DNA from: Candidatus Omnitrophota bacterium
Lineage (GTDB): Bacteria > Omnitrophota > Omnitrophia > Omnitrophales > Aquincolibacteriaceae
Assembly (NCBI GenBank): GCA_022709525.1
Contig: JAKLIQ010000009.1
Span: 19,107 to 83,106 of the forward strand
Direction of reading: 5' to 3'
Length of the DNA stretch: 64,000 bases
Shown: one piece after another, positions 4,595 through 51,633 of the stretch
Position numbering within the stretch: position 1 is the stretch's first letter
How the letters are laid out: each line of letters starts with the position of its first letter
Translations under genes and position numbers: made by a program
Notes under the pieces: model-generated
The model's input: the letters and a program-made list of their open reading frames with translations, nothing else
Databases searched by the model: none
Told to the model about the DNA's origin: nothing

Positions 4595-4785
4595 AACCGA
4601 AGACAGGACTGCCTCCGATTACCGTACACGGCCATCCCCCAGCCGTGATGATATCGCACTTGTGTATTGGACACAAGTGTTGAACCGACCGAGGATTTGC
4701 CCCTGTGCTTTATGCACAGGGACTCCGCGGCGGGAACTTGTTGTTCCCGTCCGCGGGCATCCTCTCGTCCGCCTTCATAAACTCA
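4595..4785 (-). ncRNA. hairpin-rich structured region downstream of tRNA-Pro (four perfect or near-perfect hairpins); candidate structured ncRNA or REP-like cluster
   Basis: CACTTGTGT-ATTGG-ACACAAGTG; CCCTGTGC-TTTAT-GCACAGGG; CCGCGGCGGGAAC-TTGTT-GTTCCCGtCCGCGG; CACGGC-N9-GCCGTG. No convincing ORF. Confidence 0.3.
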
Positions 4786-4823
4786 AAAAGCCTGGAAGAT
4801 AAACGCCCAGGCTTTTTGAATTA
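4786..4823. terminator. rho-independent terminator immediately 3' of tRNA-Pro
   Basis: AAAAAGCCTGG-N11-CCAGGCTTTTTG. Confidence 0.7.
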
Positions 4824-4897
4824 TCGGGGCGAGAGGATTTGAACCTCCGACCGCACGCACCCCAAGCGTGTGCGCTACCAGGCTGCGCTACGCCCCG
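4824..4897 (-). tRNA. tRNA-Pro (anticodon GGG)
   Basis: Cloverleaf built by hand: acceptor CGGGGCG/CGCCCCG, D-arm AGCGCAGCCTGGTAGCGC, anticodon stem CACGC/GCGTG with loop TTGGGGT, T-arm GGAGGTTCAAATCCTCT. No encoded CCA. Confidence 0.85.
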
Positions 4898-5166
4898 ATC
4901 AACTTTTATTAAATTTTCAATGAAGATCGGGACAGTCCAAATTCACCCGTTCAATTTAGACCGAGAATTCGGACGCCCCGATGAACCTTAATTGAAAAAT
5001 ATAACAGACATCGGGAGCAGTCTTGATTTCCTTAAACTTTTTGGATAAAAATCAAGGCGCCCCGACATCGAAAAAACCTTTAAAACGAACCGAAAGTATA
5101 TCAAATTCCTGGAATTCTGTCTGTACTTTGGATGTGATTAGGTTATTTGAGAAGTAATTTGATTTT

Positions 5167-5628: not shown

Positions 5629-6416
5629 GGGGTTTTTTTATCAGATGTTGGTGCTGACGCGGGTGGTGGAGGAATCGCGGGCGGCGCTGGCTCCGGCACA
5701 GGAATAGGCGGCAACCCGAGCGCTTTACGGATCGCGTTCTCGCCCCGCTCCTGCATCTCCCTCGGACCGACAAATCTTTCTTCGCCAAGAAAAAGCGTCG
5801 GCGTGGCATTCACCTGGCGCTGATTTCCCTCTTCTTTTTCCGCATAGATCGCTTTCGTTACCGAAACATCGGACATGCATTTCCCGAACCGGTTCATATC
5901 GGCCCCGAGCTCCCGGGCGTATTGAAACATGATCTCCACGGGCGGCACGATGGAAGGCGCCCACTCGGGCTGTTTTTCATAAAGCTTTTCCTGGTACGGC
6001 CAGAATTTACCCTGGATATGCATGCATTCGGCGGCCTGGTGCGCATAAATGGACCAGCGGTGCGAAGTGAGCGGAAAGTGCTTGAAGGTAAGCTGGATCT
6101 TCCCGGGATATTCCTGGATGATCTTATGCAATTCTTGCTGGGCGACGCGGCAAGAAGGGCATTCGAAATCGCTGTATTCGATGATCTTGATCGGGGCTGT
6201 TGCGGGGCCCTGGGTTTTTGGAGCCGAAAGGTACGCGCCGGCCAAGGAAGGTGCGGGAACCGGCGCCGGCTTGCTCCGCTTCGCAAGCATCACGATACCG
6301 GTCAGGATGATCACGAGCGTCATGCCGGCCAGGACCGAACGAAAGTTCAGCTTTGCCGGCCAAAATCTTTTCTTTGTTTTCTCTTCAAGCTTGGTTGTTT
6401 CCACTTTCGGTCCCAT
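5625..6416 (-). CDS. DsbA-family thiol:disulfide oxidoreductase, membrane-anchored (thioredoxin fold, CPSC active site)
   Basis: IIEYSDFECPSCRVAQQEL motif; N-terminal TM anchor; Pro-rich C-terminal tail. Confidence 0.8.
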   Translation of the reverse strand: MGPKVETTKLEEKTKKRFWPAKLNFRSVLAGMTLVIILTGIVMLAKRSKPAPVPAPSLAGAYLSAPKTQGPATAPIKIIEYSDFECPSCRVAQQELHKIIQEYPGKIQLTFKHFPLTSHRWSIYAHQAAECMHIQGKFWPYQEKLYEKQPEWAPSIVPPVEIMFQYARELGADMNRFGKCMSDVSVTKAIYAEKEEGNQRQVNATPTLFLGEERFVGPREMQERGENAIRKALGLPPIPVPEPAPPAIPPPPASAPTSDKKTP

Positions 6417-16438: not shown

Positions 16439-16462
16439 TGGGATTTAACCGCCAGGCGCAAC

Positions 16463-16490
16463 ATTATAGGGCCCGCCCCATGGGATGACC
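16463..16490 (-). promoter_or_regulatory. candidate promoter for Cas4-like/cupin cluster (TGGTCA-16-TATAAT)
   Basis: Read on the minus strand: gcTGGTCAtcccatggggcgggcccTATAATgttg, about 25 nt upstream of the ATG at 16438. Confidence 0.35.
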
Positions 16491-16497
16491 AGCGCTT

Positions 16498-17439: not shown

Positions 17440-18303
17440 TCAGGAAGACGTCAGCGAACGGAAGGCGTCGGGAAGAAAACGCAGAAGGTCGCTCGCCGTA
17501 AGACTGATCTCACCGATCTTTTTGGCGGCCATGTCGCCGGCCATGCCGTGAACGTGAACGCCGAAGCATGCGGCTTCAAAAGAAGAGAGTCCCTGCCCCA
17601 CAAGCGCCGCGATAACCCCCGTGAGCACGTCCCCGGATCCCGCGGTCGCCATACCGGGATTTCCCGTCGCATTGACATAGCTTTCGCCCTCCGGGGAAGC
17701 AACTACCGTATGATGCCCCTTTAAAACAATCGTGACTTGATGTTTTCTGGCGGCTTCGATGGCGCGTTTTTTCCGGAGCGCATCCGTTTCATCGAGCTTA
17801 CCGCCAAAAACCCTCAAAAATTCTCCGGGATGCGGGGTCAGTATCGTGCGGCCGCGACATGTTTTCAGAACTTCCAAATGCCCCTTGAGGGCATTCAGCC
17901 CGTCGGCATCGATCACCACCGGCAGCGTGGTTTCCTGAAGGATCTTGCGGACTAATTTCTGGGTCGGCATTTGTTGGGAAAGACCGGGGCCGATCGCAAG
18001 GACATCCTGCGTCGCGCAAAACCGCCGGATCTCGGCGGCGCCCTTGAAGGAAAGCGCGCCCTGCTTCGTCGATGGAAGCGGGCGCACCATGAGTTCGGAT
18101 TCGCGCTTGGCGACGATAAGATAAACGGCATCCGGAACGCCCACGGTCACAAGGCCCGCGCCGGAACGCAGCGCGGCCATACCCGCAAGATTAGCGGCGC
18201 CCGTCATGCCGCGCGAACCAGCGAGAACAAAAATGCGGCCCATGTCGCCTTTATGGGTTGTCGCCGGACGTTTGAGTTTTTTAGCGATGGTGTGGATATT
18301 CAT
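17440..18303 (-). CDS. nnrD: ADP-dependent NAD(P)H-hydrate dehydratase (YjeF C-terminal domain)
   Basis: HKGDMGRIFVLAGSRGMTGAANLAG carbohydrate-kinase signature. Confidence 0.85.
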   Translation of the reverse strand: MNIHTIAKKLKRPATTHKGDMGRIFVLAGSRGMTGAANLAGMAALRSGAGLVTVGVPDAVYLIVAKRESELMVRPLPSTKQGALSFKGAAEIRRFCATQDVLAIGPGLSQQMPTQKLVRKILQETTLPVVIDADGLNALKGHLEVLKTCRGRTILTPHPGEFLRVFGGKLDETDALRKKRAIEAARKHQVTIVLKGHHTVVASPEGESYVNATGNPGMATAGSGDVLTGVIAALVGQGLSSFEAACFGVHVHGMAGDMAAKKIGEISLTASDLLRFLPDAFRSLTSS

Positions 18304-18311
18304 GGTTTCAA

Positions 18312-18447
18312 AAAAGGGACTCGGGACTCGCGCCTCGCCTGGCTCTCATTAGTTCTTTATTGGAAGCCAGTGCAGCACTTTAAGTGCGGGACTCGTTTTG
18401 GCTTCCTGCCTTGTACGAGTCCCTAGTCCCGAGGAACAAGTCCCCTT
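18312..18447 (+). mobile_element. MITE-like palindromic element, copy A (about 135 bp; GGGACTCGGGACTCG / CGAGTCCCTAGTCCCGAGGAAC termini; internal GCACTTTAAGTGC hairpin)
   Basis: It fills the whole nnrD-pdxJ spacer. It is near-identical in inverted orientation to 42781-42910 and partly identical to 51206-51284. Confidence 0.6.
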
Positions 18448-18448
18448 T

Positions 18449-19189
18449 TTAATTGTTTTTTGCTTGTATGATCTTCTTCATTTCCTGGACCGCGCGGGCA
18501 ATCCCGACGAACATGGCGCGGCTGATGATCGAATGCCCGATGTTGAATTCCAGGATCTCCGGGATCTCCAGAAGCGGGAAAATATTTTCATAATTGAGCC
18601 CGTGCCCGGCGTGGATCTTCAGGCCGAGTTCTTTTCCTAATTGCGCGGCCTTGCGGATACGGAGAAGCTCTTTTTCTTTCTGCGCGCCGCGGGCGTTGGC
18701 GTAAGAACCCGTATGGATCTCGATGGCGTAGGCGCCGAGACGCGCCGCCTCCCGAACCTGTTTTTCAATGGGATCGATAAAAAGACTGACCTGGACTTCT
18801 TTGCCGGATAGGGCTTCCACGGTATCGGCAAGTTGTTTTCTTTTAGAAAAAAGATTCAAGCCGCCTTCGGTGGTAAGCTCCTGTCTTTTTTCCGGAACCA
18901 AACATGCTTTCTCGGGACAGGCCTTAAGCGCGATCTTGAGGATTTCCGGCGAGATCGACATTTCAAGATTGAGCGGCACATAGATCTTCTCGATAAGCTC
19001 GAAAACATCCGCGTCTTGGATATGGCGGCGGTCTTCCCGCAAATGGACCGTAATACTGTCAGCGCCGCCCTGTTCGGCATCAAGCGCCGCTTCGAGGACC
19101 GAAGGCTCTTCGGCAAGACGGGCTTGCCGCAGCGTGGCGACATGATCGATATTAACGCCGAGTTTTTTAGGGGAAGAAGACGCCGTCAT
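18449..19189 (-). CDS. pdxJ: pyridoxine 5'-phosphate synthase
   Basis: KLGVNIDHVATLRQAR ... characteristic PdxJ TIM-barrel motifs. Confidence 0.9.
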   Translation of the reverse strand: MTASSSPKKLGVNIDHVATLRQARLAEEPSVLEAALDAEQGGADSITVHLREDRRHIQDADVFELIEKIYVPLNLEMSISPEILKIALKACPEKACLVPEKRQELTTEGGLNLFSKRKQLADTVEALSGKEVQVSLFIDPIEKQVREAARLGAYAIEIHTGSYANARGAQKEKELLRIRKAAQLGKELGLKIHAGHGLNYENIFPLLEIPEILEFNIGHSIISRAMFVGIARAVQEMKKIIQAKNN

Positions 19190-24100: not shown

Positions 24101-24105
24101 GGTTC

Positions 24106-24211
24106 CCCCGTTAGAGTCTTAATCAAATTTTAAAAAGAATTCTTTAGCCCCGAATAATTTCAAAAATAACGTTATTTCGTCTCGTTAGAGCCATTTGAGA
24201 CTCTAACGGGG
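24106..24211. repeat. intergenic element with 14-bp perfect terminal inverted repeats CCCCGTTAGAGTCT (24106-24119 / 24198-24211) around an AT-rich core containing the palindrome AAATAACGTTATTT
   Basis: Seen directly in the yebC-folP spacer. Confidence 0.5.
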
Positions 24212-24220
24212 CGAGTCCTT

Positions 24221-28339: not shown

Positions 28340-28408
28340 ATGATGATTATGAGGGGGTGCCGCCCCGCACTGCAAAAAATATTTTTTCTAAGCTTGATGG
28401 ATTGTCGT

Positions 28409-28460
28409 GGCATGAACCACGTTGGGTTCATGCCTACCCTACACCCAACGTGGTGTAGGG
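28409..28460 (-). ncRNA. dual-hairpin module immediately 3' of tRNA-Met (two perfect 9-10 bp hairpins, apical loops ACGTT and CAACG)
   Basis: Minus-strand sense: CCCTACACC-ACGTT-GGGTGTAGGG, TA, GGCATGAACC-CAACG-TGGTTCATGCC. It abuts the tRNA discriminator base. Confidence 0.5.
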
Positions 28461-28534
28461 TGCCGGGGGCCAGGATTGAACTGGCGACCTAGGGCTTATG
28501 AGTCCCTCGCTCTAGCCAACTGAGCTACCCCGGC
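28461..28534 (-). tRNA. tRNA-Met (anticodon CAT; elongator-type acceptor, could alternatively be tRNA-Ile2/lysidine)
   Basis: GCCGGGGTAGCTCAGTTGGCTAGAGCGAGGGACTCATAAGCCCTAGGTCGCCAGTTCAATCCTGGCCCCCGGCA; G1:C72 paired, so it is not the initiator. Confidence 0.85.
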
Positions 28535-28585
28535 AAAAAATTTGAAAAGGGGAAATAGAAACGATTTAAATTGTTTGAAAAGGAC

Positions 28586-28638
28586 GCCCCGCACCACATT
28601 GGGTGCGGGGCTGCCCTGAACCCAACGCGGTTCAGGGC
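28586..28638 (-). ncRNA. dual-hairpin module 5' of tRNA-Met (apical loops GCGTT and CAATG), same architecture as the 3' module
   Basis: Minus-strand sense: GCCCTGAACC-GCGTT-GGGTTCAGGGC, A, GCCCCGCACC-CAATG-TGGTGCGGGGC. A possible promoter TTGTGC-18-TAGTAT lies just upstream (28643-28672). Confidence 0.5.
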
Positions 28639-28743
28639 GCGTATACTAACATAGCTTCGCGCGAACGCACAAGCCCGCTTCCGCCTCCGGTATCGATCGG
28701 AAATCATCTTTACATGAGAGGACTAAGGGCGTAAACTGAGCTC

Positions 28744-42524: not shown

Positions 42525-42770
42525 ATGAGTATCACCACAAGACAAATATGGGAACATCTGGTCCGGGACTTTCTGGAGATCAAATGCACCCTGAAGGAAC
42601 CGGAGCAGGAGTTTCTCCTGGATTTTCTTAAAAACAAGGGGGTCAAGGCCGAAGCCATCCAGATGCATCCGGCTTTTTCGGTCGATGACCACTTGGTCGT
42701 GATCATGGAGGATTCGGACCTGAAAAAGCGCTTTTTCTACCATCCTCAAAAACAAACGATCGAAGAATGA
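42525..42770 (+). CDS. small hypothetical protein (81 aa)
   Basis: Good RBS AAGGGGGT 6 nt before the ATG; acidic protein-like composition; no known domain. Confidence 0.45.
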   Translation: MSITTRQIWEHLVRDFLEIKCTLKEPEQEFLLDFLKNKGVKAEAIQMHPAFSVDDHLVVIMEDSDLKKRFFYHPQKQTIEE

Positions 42771-42780
42771 TTCAAAAAAC

Positions 42781-42910
42781 GGGGCTTGTTCCTCGGGACT
42801 AGGGACTCGTAAAAGCAAAGAAAAAAGACGATTCCCGCACTTAAAGTGCTGCGTTGGCTTCCAATAAAGAATTAAAATAAGAGCCAGCGAGGTGCGGGTT
42901 CCGAGTCCCC
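42781..42910 (-). mobile_element. MITE-like palindromic element, copy B (inverted relative to copy A)
   Basis: The reverse complement of 18312-18447 aligns along its whole length (GGGGCTTGTTCCTCGGGACTAGGGACTCGTA...GCACTTAAAGTGC...CCGAGTCCCC). It abuts the rluB stop codon. Confidence 0.6.
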
Positions 42911-42911
42911 T

Positions 42912-43646
42912 TTACAAATCAACGGCTTTGCGGAGTTCGCGGGCTTCAAAAGAAGTGAGAAAGCGGCCTTGGCCGGGAGCAAGATGGCCCAGCTTGAGGG
43001 GCCCGAACGAAAAACGATTGAGCATGATCACTTCGTAACCAAAGCGTTTGAAGACCCGCCGGATCTGGCGCTTTTTCCCCTCCCGGAGTTCCACCATCAG
43101 GATCCTCGGCGACACCGGCCGGACCTCCTCCACTTTGAGAAAACCGTCATACGAATGAAAACCTTCCAAAACTTTATGGCGGTCTTTTATGTCCCAGGCA
43201 CGGTTCAGCTTGACCTGATACCATTTTTCGACGTGAAAACGCGGATGGATCAAGCGGTTCGCGAGTTCTCCGTCATTGGTCATGAGGAGCAGGCCCGAAG
43301 AATCTTTATCGAGCCGGCCGACCGGAAAAACCCGAACCTTGCTTGTAGCGGATTGACGCGTCGCGTTCACAAGATGGCGCGGCAGAAGGTCAAAGACCGT
43401 TTTCTTGGCATGCATGTCCTGCGCCGTCACAACATAGCCCTCGGGTTTGTTCAGAACATAGTAAACATGCGGCGCGGCCTGGAGGACCTTGTTGCGGTAC
43501 ATGATCGTGTCATTTTCAAAATCCACTTGCCGGCCGAGGTCCCGCACCACCTCGCCATTGACAGAAATGGCGCCGTTAGCGACAAAAACTTCGCATTTCC
43601 TGCGCGAACCGAGCCCGGCGCTGGCTAAAGCGTGCGCGATCCTCAT
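42912..43646 (-). CDS. rluB: RluB/RsuA-family rRNA pseudouridine synthase
   Basis: S4 domain N-terminus; catalytic GRLDKDSSGLLLMTNDGELANRL. Confidence 0.85.
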   Translation of the reverse strand: MRIAHALASAGLGSRRKCEVFVANGAISVNGEVVRDLGRQVDFENDTIMYRNKVLQAAPHVYYVLNKPEGYVVTAQDMHAKKTVFDLLPRHLVNATRQSATSKVRVFPVGRLDKDSSGLLLMTNDGELANRLIHPRFHVEKWYQVKLNRAWDIKDRHKVLEGFHSYDGFLKVEEVRPVSPRILMVELREGKKRQIRRVFKRFGYEVIMLNRFSFGPLKLGHLAPGQGRFLTSFEARELRKAVDL

Positions 43647-50888: not shown

Positions 50889-51200
50889 TCAGCGGCCCTT
50901 CAGCCCCTCACAATAACCAAAACTTCGTTCGGTTTTCCATTGAAGCGGGAAATCCCGGCATTGCGCGGGCCTAGACTCATACACCGAACAACCCTCTTTC
51001 CCTAAAAAAAGACAGCTTTCATCCGTCTGTTTTTTAAGGGCTAAGTGGCGGCGATCGAGCAAGAGGCAATAGGTTTCCGTGAATTTATAGACATCCATGC
51101 CAAAAGCGGCAGCGAGGCGCTCAGCATCTTGGGGGGTGAGATAAACAAAGCCGGGTTGACGGCAACAGGCGCTACATCGCCGACATCGGAAAGAAGCCAT
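50889..51200 (-). CDS. YkgJ-family cysteine-cluster protein (UPF0153)
   Basis: CRRCSACC...C...C...C pattern typical of the YkgJ Fe-S/Zn family. Confidence 0.7.
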   Translation of the reverse strand: MASFRCRRCSACCRQPGFVYLTPQDAERLAAAFGMDVYKFTETYCLLLDRRHLALKKQTDESCLFLGKEGCSVYESRPAQCRDFPLQWKTERSFGYCEGLKGR

Positions 51201-51205
51201 AAAAA

Positions 51206-51284
51206 GGGATTCGTTCCTCGGGACTAGGGACTCGTATTGGTTTCTTGTTCTTTACGAGTCCCGAGGTGCGAGGAACGAGTCCCC
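51206..51284. mobile_element. MITE-like palindromic element, copy C (about 79 bp mini-copy: long termini retained, interior deleted, folds as a single near-perfect hairpin)
   Basis: GGGATTCGTTCCTCGGGACTAGGGACTCGTA-ttggtttcttgttcttt-ACGAGTCCCGAGGTGCGAGGAACGAGTCCCC. It sits 5 nt from the DUF4870 stop and 5 nt from the YkgJ start. Confidence 0.6.
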
Positions 51285-51288
51285 ATTA

Positions 51289-51633
51289 TTATTTTTTCCC
51301 GAGCTGCTGTTCGACGAAATCGCCGACTACCGGCAGCTTATAACGTTCCCCTTTGTAGGATTTCACCATCAGGATGATCCAAAGCACGACGCCTAACGGG
51401 AAAAGCACAAGGTTCACCAAGATCCCCAGGACCGGGATAAGGCCGGCCACGAAGGACAGGATGAAAAGGCCGAGGAAGGTCACAAGCGACTGCAGCGCGT
51501 GAAAACGAACGAACGCGTTCTTTTGTTCCAGTAGCAGAAAAACGAGGCCCGTGATCCAGCCGAGTACATAGCAAAAAAGGGCCTCGAGATTTTCCGTAAC
51601 GCCTAATACCGTGTTCTTATTCTCTTCCGCCAT
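51289..51633 (-). CDS. DUF4870 family membrane protein
   Basis: Three TM helices; conserved FHALQSL block. Confidence 0.7.
   Translation of the reverse strand: MAEENKNTVLGVTENLEALFCYVLGWITGLVFLLLEQKNAFVRFHALQSLVTFLGLFILSFVAGLIPVLGILVNLVLFPLGVVLWIILMVKSYKGERYKLPVVGDFVEQQLGKK

Follow-up and report, generated by a model that had tools for sequence, protein, structure and literature searches.

Inverted heptamer repeats form a family of palindromic elements in intergenic spacers of Candidatus Omnitrophota

Introduction

The STRR repeats of cyanobacteria have been known for decades, and the heptamers of Nostoc are of the STRR1 type. Intergenic heptamer repeats of the general form (GGGANTN)n, with the unit GGGAATC in Xanthomonas and GGGGA[C/T]T in Nostoc, preferentially comprise four units, corresponding to 28 nt (Rehm et al. 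2015, PLoS One, PMC4692102). Each Xanthomonas genome harbors 70-75 convergent inverted pairs that are spaced 21-67 nt apart and can be positioned only 3-16 nt from the gene ends, as between gltB and gltD, groES and groEL or atpA and atpG; between two species, 83% of the pairs are kept at the same site with varying length (PMC4692102). These heptamers are transcribed and not linked to insertion sequence (IS) elements; their function is unexplained, a role in G-quadruplex formation has been proposed, and slippage has been discussed as the cause of the heptamer excess (PMC4692102). A literature search for palindromic or heptamer repeats in Omnitrophota yielded nothing on this phylum and led to the above study and to a second paper on heptamer repeats (MacGregor 2015). 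Here, we describe a family of palindromic elements with GGGACT-containing arms, three copies of which (c1, c2 and c3) are located in a 64,000-nt stretch of a Candidatus Omnitrophota genome (contig JAKLIQ010000009.1, positions 19,107 to 83,106), referred to as the window in the following.

Several other classes of intergenic palindromes are relevant for comparison. The short extragenic palindromes of Proteobacteria known as REP, BIME and REPIN are mobilised by RAYT transposases of the Y1/HUH type and number tens to hundreds per genome; their unit is itself an imperfect palindrome of 20-40 nt. REPs protect the 3' ends of mRNAs and affect translation when located within about 15 nt of a stop codon. 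The ERIC (or IRU) elements of enterobacteria are imperfect palindromes of about 127 bp with a modest copy number, which are conserved across species at transcribed intergenic sites. Correia elements of Neisseria (CREE/NEMIS) measure 100-155 bp, have inverted ends and come in two sizes, with a difference of about 50 bp. They are co-transcribed with their neighbours, and their hairpins are processed by RNase III; in addition, they duplicate a TA target and possess 26-bp terminal inverted repeats and an IHF site.

Results

The window copies belong to a dispersed, heptad-built family

The palindromes constitute a real and dispersed family that is built from units of 7 nt. A preliminary description of the window had reported three copies, two of them as inverted full-length counterparts, and repeat finding and alignment confirmed both their positions (Table 1) and this relationship: c1 and c2 are reverse complements over the full length, with repeat-finder segments of 51 nt (90%) and 48 nt (88%), and c3 is a hairpin of 79 nt, its 31-nt arms showing 84% complementarity. 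The terminus pattern ACGAGTCCCNAGNNNCGAGGAAC matched four arms in the window versus 0.00 expected from 100 shuffles, and GGGACTCG occurred 10 times versus 2.65 expected. Neither an nhmmer profile of the arm nor a sliding minimum free energy scan revealed degenerate extra copies in the window beyond c1-c3.

As proposed earlier, the copies fill whole short spacers, with element-to-codon gaps of 1-12 nt, and two of them (c1 and c3) are located between co-directional genes. The gene names assigned to the flanks (nnrD, pdxJ, rluB, DUF4870 and ykgJ) were borne out by Pfam. The 81-aa open reading frame (ORF) beside c2 is a genuine conserved gene, as its ortholog in a related locus (L007; compared loci carry L numbers throughout) keeps the protein sequence. 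Scans around all three copies identified no promoter inside or beside them and did not call their hairpins as terminators. No Shine-Dalgarno motif is present in the sequence between c1 and the nnrD-like start codon. The GAGG of the arm was considered as such a motif and rejected, since its distance of 15-30 nt to the ATG is too long; Shine-Dalgarno-like motifs precede only about 40% of the window genes.

The ends had been described as GGGACT repeats. Such repeats are present, but each arm actually consists of four tandem 7-nt units, and the two arms are inverted around a loop of 16-21 nt. The units are of four types, A (GGGACTC), A' (GGGACTA), B (GTTCCTC) and C (GCACCTC-like, G-NNN-CTC), and are arranged as A-(A/B)-C-A in one arm and as A-B-A'-A in the other. 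A 4-nt core, CTCG in one arm and CGAG in the other, is constant and paired across the stem, and the remaining three nucleotides of units 2 and 3 are systematically mismatched between the arms. The innermost unit forms an invariant stem of 8-9 bp around a conserved T-rich loop, which reads GTTTTGGTTCCTCGTTTTTAC when the 12 short copies analysed are oriented by their loop. In these copies, the arm type is free relative to the loop, as either type was found on either side. In c1, Tandem Repeats Finder (TRF) detected the period of 7 at 18316-18330, where a lag-7 cluster was found as well, and the type-2 arm is an exact pattern match that was also recovered by the nhmmer arm profile (E=8e-11).

Within the family, element sizes range from 56 to 135 nt. 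The long copies c1 and c2 carry an extra module of 50-51 nt between unit C and the inner unit A, which among all DNA compared is confined to c1, c2 and the c1 ortholog L020 and is absent from short copies. Correspondingly, a GCACTTTAAGTGC hairpin that had been ascribed to all three window copies is present only in c1 and c2. It had further been assumed that c3 is an internally deleted mini-copy; however, the short form is the commonest among the 15 distinct copies described below. It is therefore likely the basic form, and the long form is probably a short copy that acquired the module.

Fifteen copies occupy gene junctions in several Omnitrophota species

A strict 19-base pattern was used in one scan of species-representative genomes and one scan of Joint Genome Institute (JGI) metagenomes. 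The former gave matches in three metagenome-assembled genomes (MAGs), all from Candidatus Omnitrophota, and the latter in ten contigs, several of which duplicate MAG loci; the metagenomes Ga0265297, Ga0247841 and Ga0172380 derive from landfill, groundwater and peat. Together with the three window copies, the 12 further copies bring the total to 15. Three pattern matches were excluded from the count. Two of them, in L002 and L011, fall in coding DNA of high GC content and are due to chance. The third, L010 (59-124, Ga0187781_10000002), stems from another organism and has no inverted partner; nine related heptads follow each other there in a purely tandem array (GTTCCTC GCGACTC GGGACTC GTGACTC ... 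GGGACTA).

The MAG JBAZER01 contains three exact pattern matches, and the 64 kb of the source genome covered by the window contain three copies. Ten of the 15 copies are short (four units per arm, 4+4), two are half copies (4+1; L001 and L007), and three are longer (c1, c2 and L006), with the insert of L006 being different from the c1/c2 module. At no fewer than 12 intergenic sites that are not orthologous, spread over several Omnitrophota species, the arms and the loop are nearly identical. Viral contigs gave 0 matches to the terminus pattern and thus no sign of phage carriage, and blastn of c1 against plasmids and phages returned no match.

In 14 of the 15 copies, a stop codon is positioned at most 17 nt from the element on at least one side, with a slight overlap in two; the exception is L006, which lies between divergent genes. 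Most copies are located between co-directional genes, and the next start codon follows after 5-30 nt. Often, an A-run borders the element at one end and a T-run at the other, by which the palindrome is extended.

Elements are retained, lost and replaced at orthologous sites

Orthologs of c3 were found in the same DUF4870-ykgJ spacer of L004 (MAG fen_1321) and L016. Across species, the element shows 78-79% identity and its 5' arm 82-94%, compared with 42-55% for third codon positions in the flanking genes; one of the differences between the orthologous copies is an indel of exactly one heptad (7 nt). The c2 ortholog in L007 is a half copy in the same slot and with the same loop orientation, compared to which the window copy has 71 nt more, made up of the module and the outer arm. 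Both sites show long retention and conservation above neutral.

A different picture emerged for the c1 slot, for which eight further orthologous pdxJ-nnrD junctions were recovered via PdxJ homologs and ordered by a PdxJ tree. The homologs also confirm that the window derives from Omnitrophota. In the outgroups L028 (63% PdxJ identity) and L026 (82%), pdxJ and nnrD overlap and leave no spacer. Other relatives carry palindromes of different heptads in the slot, namely (NNNTAAG) in L024, L025 and L027, (TATAGNC) in L023 and (CAGANNN) in L021/L022. Among the junctions compared, only those of the window and of L020 (98% PdxJ identity) hold the GGGACT long form; a 92% relative has a spacer of 55 nt, which is too short for it. 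The overlap in the outgroups and the different palindromes in the relatives show that the slot arose by insertion and that its occupant was replaced at least three times. The c1 spacer is identical to that of L020 in 145/145 positions, whereas identity in the flanking genes amounts to 94.6% and 89.5% overall and to 88% and 78.5% at third positions. The mismatch-free tract around c1 extends over 228 nt and is the longest in 1.75 kb.

The palindrome is a series of short helices constrained in sequence

The predicted RNA folds have free energies of -64.9 (+ strand) and -69.1 (- strand) kcal/mol for c1 (z -6.4 and -7.2), -45.5 and -37.2 kcal/mol for c2 (z -3.0 and -0.6) and -52.1 and -43.5 kcal/mol for c3 (z -8.5 and -8.1), and DNA folds of the copies behave likewise. 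Folds of c1 and c3 are highly stable on both strands, those of c2 less so. Fitting the 12 short copies to the full palindrome left 73% of the cells paired, compared with 20-42% when the partner was slid; the palindrome is therefore real. Pairing is restricted to the CTCG/CGAG cores and the inner 8-bp stem, which is invariant in 12/12 short copies and the only one retained by RNAalifold. The conserved object thus consists of periodic short helices separated by 3x3 internal loops, and is sequence-constrained rather than a stem maintained by covariation.

At gathering thresholds, Rfam detected only two tRNAs in the window, and no family covers the element. In permissive mode, c1 and c3 gave nothing but sub-threshold noise from miRNA hairpins, e.g. 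34.7 bits against a threshold of 108.

Heptad palindromes with unrelated units are common in relatives

A lag-k self-similarity scan of 181 kb of non-redundant Omnitrophota DNA yielded 21 clusters at lag 7 versus 0-4 at lags 4-12 and, at a stricter threshold, 11 lag-7 clusters versus 0-2 at other lags. Within the window, GGGACT is the sole heptad family. The relatives contain palindromes with the units GTACGGC (L001, L003, L005), GGATGNN (L003), CGTAGGT (L005), TATAGCC (L021, L023) and GNNCAAC (L023) as well as GGAGTNN, CAGANNN and CGGTAAG; those sister families that share the same slots are not G-rich. Where genes were called, these palindromes take up the entire spacer between co-directional housekeeping genes (ruvA-ruvB, yebC-ruvC, radical SAM-PDDEXK), and in most of them the loop ends 3' with a run of four to six T. 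L026 and L028 had 0 lag-7 clusters in 20 kb each. In L021, L023 and L025, the 5' arm codes for the last residues of PdxJ.

The inverted heptamers of Xanthomonas and Nostoc are the closest described class

The preliminary description did not recognise the motif from a named family. This holds for Rfam; the element does, however, fall into the class of (GGGANTN)n heptamer inverted repeats (PMC4692102). These are the closest class described, and the element agrees with every descriptive criterion of that class except the potential to form G-quadruplexes. The Omnitrophota unit fits GGGANTN, and GGGACTC itself also occurs in Xanthomonas repeat #4. At least two tandem GGGANTN units are present (GGGACTC GGGACTC in c1), most copies having four-unit arms. 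As in the described repeats, the arrays are convergent, able to form a stem-loop, intergenic, free of any association with IS elements, less than 50 nt from ORF ends and mostly located between co-directional genes, and retention at orthologous sites with varying unit number is seen for c3 (L004, L016) and c2 (L007). In contrast to the described repeats, the arms are only 16-21 nt apart instead of 21-67 nt, they include one non-G unit and give no G-quadruplex motif, and both unit order and loop are conserved, so that the whole palindrome is the repeated entity. Moreover, the Omnitrophota slots also host non-G-rich heptad sister families, and the phylum is a different one. The motif G3N1-7 x4 was found in 0/15 copies on either strand, and in 1/15 when loops of up to 12 nt were allowed. 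This is because one unit per arm (GTTCCTC or GCACCTC) always lacks a G-tract, which usually leaves three GGG runs per arm.

The resemblance to mobile and other intergenic elements is partial. Like REP, BIME and REPIN sequences, which are often located just past stop codons and in operons, form long hairpins as inverted doublets, cause no target duplication and persist vertically for long periods, the Omnitrophota elements show these features. A single arm GGGACTCGGGACTCGCACCTCGGGACTCG is, however, a direct heptad array that is not self-complementary and lacks the GTAG head; Y1_Tnp (RAYT) was absent from the window and the annotated loci. The c1/c2 module is reminiscent of the size forms of ERIC, which result from insertions and deletions at fixed positions, but there is no sequence similarity and ERIC has no heptad periodicity. 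With Correia elements the palindromes share inverted ends and size classes about 50 bp apart; they have no TA duplication at their boundaries, no 26-bp terminal inverted repeats, no IHF site and no sequence similarity. An integron attC site was rejected, as the ends are GGGACT/AGTCCC and not the core sites RYYYAAC and GTTRRRY, the neighbours are housekeeping genes whose synteny is conserved in the relatives, and the window contains no integrase. A miniature inverted-repeat transposable element (MITE) would agree with the small size, the inverted arms of about 30 nt and the presence/absence polymorphism at the pdxJ-nnrD slot; that the arms are systematically non-identical in units 2-3 counts against a classical MITE. 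Neither the gene tables for L020-L028 nor the 64-kb window contained an autonomous, transposase-encoding element with the same ends.

Table 1 Coordinates of the elements, their parts and the flanking genes (window numbering unless a locus is named)
Feature	Position	Strand	Description
c1, long form	18316..18445		130-nt core; fills pdxJ-nnrD spacer, both genes on - strand
Runs flanking c1	18310-18315; 18446-18450		A-run; T-run
c1 outer arm, type 1	18316..18337	+	GGGACTC GGGACTC GCGCCTC, then G
c1 inserted module	18338..18387		50 nt; two small hairpins, CTGGCT...AGCCAG and GCACTTTAAGTGC
c1 inner hairpin	18388..18423		GGGACTCGT, 17-nt loop TTTGGCTTCCTGCCTTG, then TACGAGTCCC
c1 arm, type 2	18414..18445	+	complement of GGGGACT TGTTCCTC GGGACTA GGGACTCGTA
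c2, long form	42781..42910		inverted relative to c1; between stop of 81-aa ORF (+) and stop of RluB-like gene (-)
c2 type-2 arm	42781-42811		followed by loop
c2 inner heptad	42827-42836
c2 module	42837-42887
c2 outer arm	42888-42910
c3, short form	51206..51284		79 nt; fills DUF4870-ykgJ spacer, both genes on - strand
c3 first arm	51206-51236		GGGATTC GTTCCTC GGGACTA GGGACTCGTA
c3 loop	51237-51252
c3 second arm	51253-51284
NAD(P)H-hydrate dehydratase (nnrD-like)	17440..18303	-	Pfam Carb_kinase E=4e-59; start codon 18301-18303, 12 nt from c1
pdxJ	18449..19189	-	Pfam PdxJ E=1.6e-95; stop codon 18449-18451, 3 nt from c1
Conserved 81-aa ORF	42525..42770	+	stop 10-11 nt from c2; no Pfam match; ortholog in L007
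RluB-like pseudouridine synthase	42912..43646	-	Pfam PseudoU_synth_2 and S4; stop 1 nt from c2
YkgJ-like CxxCxxCC protein	50889..51200	-	Pfam; start 5 nt from c3
DUF4870 protein	51289..51633	-	Pfam; stop 4 nt from c3
Heptad palindromes with unrelated units, L001	2690-2780
Same, L003	5345-5425, 5940-6000
Same, L005	25-110, 1245-1365, 5245-5330
Same, L021	6868-6962, 8765-8810
Same, L023	6845-6920, 10722-10812, 12610-12722
Same, L024	10722-10805
Same, L025	3036-3130
Same, L027	3445-3550, 10730-10800

Other features of the window and its relatives

A second repeat family, unrelated to the heptads, flanks tRNA-Met (28458-28535, - strand). It consists of four adjacent hairpins, two on each side (28401-28460 and 28581-28641), with a conserved 6-nt loop (ACGTTG or CAACGY) and stems of about 10 bp that vary in sequence but remain paired (GGCATGAACC/GGTTCATGCC, CCCTACACC/GGTGTAGGG, CCCCGCACC/GGTGCGGGG and CCCTGAACC/GGTTCAGGG). 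Near tRNA-Pro (4823-4898), two tandem G+C-rich hairpins at 4681-4770 reach -52.9 kcal/mol, a stability that no other 90-nt fold of the window attains, and are part of a gene-free stretch of 907 nt. The yebC-folP spacer (24101-24220) contains an inverted repeat, CCCCGTTAGAGTCT...AGACTCTAACGGGG, around about 75 nt of A/T-rich sequence, with a fold of -38.2 kcal/mol. Coding repeats with a period of 90 nt are located at 893-1711 in a 374-aa ORF with a weak MORN_2 match.

In L020, a close relative of about 90% nucleotide identity, a 656-nt segment (5670-6325) separates the radical-SAM and PDDEXK genes, compared with a 59-nt spacer in the window (16439-16497); within it, a small ORF that was not called follows a GGGGG-rich site resembling a ribosome-binding site. 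L021 (634-1611) and L027 (4062-5471) possess genes with phage tail-fibre-type domains (Peptidase_S74; Gp34_trimer) between ruvC and ruvA, which are absent from the window, L023, L024 and L026.

Discussion

Taken together, our findings lead us to propose, with moderate confidence, that the GGGACT palindrome is a lineage-restricted, non-autonomous repeat of the REP/ERIC kind, which is propagated by copying and maintained as an mRNA hairpin between cistrons. The unit sequence would be copied to many intergenic sites; the dispersal as such is observed, and the copying enzyme is presumed. The copying may be carried out by a trans-acting factor that leaves no target duplication, as is the case for hairpin-recognising enzymes of the HUH/RAYT type, or by homologous recombination of short flanking patches. 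New copies would insert into, or replace, the short stretch that separates a stop codon from the gene that follows, and settled copies would evolve by gain or loss of whole heptads and by acquisition of modules such as the 50-nt module of c1 and c2. Within co-directional gene strings, the copies would be transcribed and form an imperfect hairpin (-37 to -69 kcal/mol) 1-17 nt past the upstream stop codon. By analogy with REP, ERIC and Correia elements, an RNA-level role as an intercistronic hairpin appears most likely: the hairpin may act as punctuation by shielding the upstream cistron from 3' exonucleases or by attenuating read-through, and it may set the translation of a cistron that starts 5-17 nt downstream. 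Such a punctuation role would explain why the copies are retained and conserved far above neutral. The behaviour of the closest described class is in line with the proposal: four-unit inverted pairs of Xanthomonas are found 3-16 nt from gene ends, are kept at the same site in 83% of cases between species and are transcribed (PMC4692102).

A number of observations weigh against this proposal. No direct repeat that would indicate a target-site duplication flanks any of the 15 copies. Pfam identified no transposase, RAYT or integrase among the about 70 ORFs of the 64-kb window, nor was one present in about 140 kb of annotated relatives, for which reason the copying agent is hypothetical. As to a role in RNA, only about half of the copies are followed, in the direction of transcription, by a T-run, the orientation of the loop versus transcription is mixed (5 versus 3), and c2 folds weakly on one strand (z -0.6). 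The 12 short copies exhibit zero compensatory pairs, and their observed pairing is below that of every one of 500 shuffles (80%), because units 2 and 3 are mismatched (A versus B, C versus A') in 8-9 of 10 copies. Selection is therefore not simply for a stem. Finally, the 228-nt tract shared by c1 and L020 reaches 51 and 32 nt into the coding flanks on either side, so that the identity of c1 and L020 possibly reflects either selection or a recent recombination patch. The preliminary description had considered a selected structured signal as one of two options, each of which finds partial support. The conservation of the orthologs (78-94% compared with 42-55% at third positions) and the 145/145 identity of c1 speak for this option, and the lack of both compensatory pairs and an orientation bias does not.

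The other option, a MITE, has the dispersed near-identical copies, the size variants and the turnover of the pdxJ-nnrD slot in its favour. A related alternative is that the palindrome is a purely selfish miniature element of the MITE or REPIN kind with no function for the host, which survives only where it is harmless, just past stop codons. We regard this as unlikely, although it accounts well for the near-identical dispersed copies, for the size variants and half copies (L001, L007) and for the turnover of slots, including lineages without any element (L026, L028). Orthologs, however, stay 78-94% identical even though synonymous sites are near saturation, and c1 is fully identical to its L020 counterpart. 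As c1 and c2 are only 88-90% alike within one genome, intragenomic homogenisation offers no explanation for this conservation. A classical MITE is also difficult to reconcile with the absence of target-site duplications, with the non-identical arms and with the lack of a transposase in window and loci or of an autonomous partner among the Pfam-scanned window genes.

The constraint on sequence rather than pairing raises the question whether the 7-nt register, in which a constant CTCG core and three variable nucleotides recur four times per arm, is the footprint of a protein that binds single-stranded RNA or DNA arms or double-stranded DNA, with the hairpin being secondary. There are precedents for such recognition: HutP reads NAG triplets with a 7-nt period, and BIMEs bind gyrase and IHF. 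The zero compensatory pairs, the unit 2/3 mismatches that are kept in 8-9/10 copies, and the conserved loop sequence are consistent with a sequence-specific binding array, and the constraint exceeds what a stem requires. However, the unrelated cores of the sister palindromes (TAAG, TATAG, GTACGG, GGAT, GTAGGT and CAAC), which often occupy the same slot, would each need their own protein. Since no candidate protein is at hand and the flanking genes are functionally unrelated housekeeping genes, we consider a binding array distinctly doubtful.

It is improbable that the elements arose locally and without mobility, from heptamer arrays that were generated by slippage and rendered palindromic by fold-back or template switching, and that their likeness is due to convergence or gene conversion. 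Slippage, which has been discussed for other heptamers (PMC4692102), would fit the excess of period 7 (21 clusters versus 0-4 at lags 4-12), the whole-heptad indels between orthologs and the pure tandem array of nine units in L010. Yet arms of about 30 nt with the same four-unit order and the same 20-nt loop are shared by unrelated loci and species, and independent slippage would not reproduce such copies. In addition, c1 and c2 have a 50-nt module in common that is not heptad-built.

Only a slim chance is left for ordinary bidirectional Rho-independent terminators that share their sequence by chance. Such a function would suit c1 and c3, which are G+C-rich hairpins with A-run and T-run flanks, and c2, which is positioned between convergent genes. 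But two of the three window copies are located within operon-like strings, 5-12 nt before the next start codon and with no promoter match, and the T-run follows in only about half of the 15 copies. Loops of 16-21 nt and stems of about 30 nt with internal loops are equally atypical, the terminator scan does not call the window copies, and sequence conservation across loci would be unexpected. That the repeat forms G-quadruplexes, the idea put forward for the heptamers of Xanthomonas and Nostoc, is very improbable here: GGGACTC fits GGGANTN and the arms consist of four units, a number to which Rehm et al. gave weight, but one unit per arm has no G-tract, 0/15 copies contain G3N1-7 x4, and the sister families that occupy these slots are not rich in G.

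A more far-reaching idea, which we put forward only as a tentative and rather unlikely extension, is that heptad palindromes form a general, structure-defined intercistronic class common to Omnitrophota, Xanthomonas and cyanobacteria, with a dedicated machinery of 7-nt register that writes and overwrites the same junctions. If true, membership of the class would rest on arms of four 7-nt units, each unit with a constant, paired 4-nt core and three unpaired variable nucleotides, and on a loop ending in a T-run. The machinery might be a hairpin-specific enzyme of the HUH type or a polymerase/template-switch process. GGGACTC, CGGTAAG, TATAGCC, GTACGGC and others would then be alleles of one system, the replacements at the pdxJ-nnrD slot would represent its normal mode of action, and the G-quadruplex idea would be incidental.

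The kind of repeat described here is already known; what is new is the four-unit inverted heptamer architecture in the uncultured phylum Omnitrophota. This architecture is thereby found in a distant phylum and in a version without the capacity to form G-quadruplexes. Because of this incapacity, the non-G-rich sister families in the same slots and the conserved internal mismatches, we argue that the architecture of hairpin and register, and not G-quadruplex chemistry, is the common denominator. For the compact genomes of Omnitrophota, the repeats represent conserved non-coding landmarks at operon junctions, which are relevant for gene calling, as the arms overlap gene 3' ends in some relatives, for the prediction of operons and terminators and for the assembly of MAGs.

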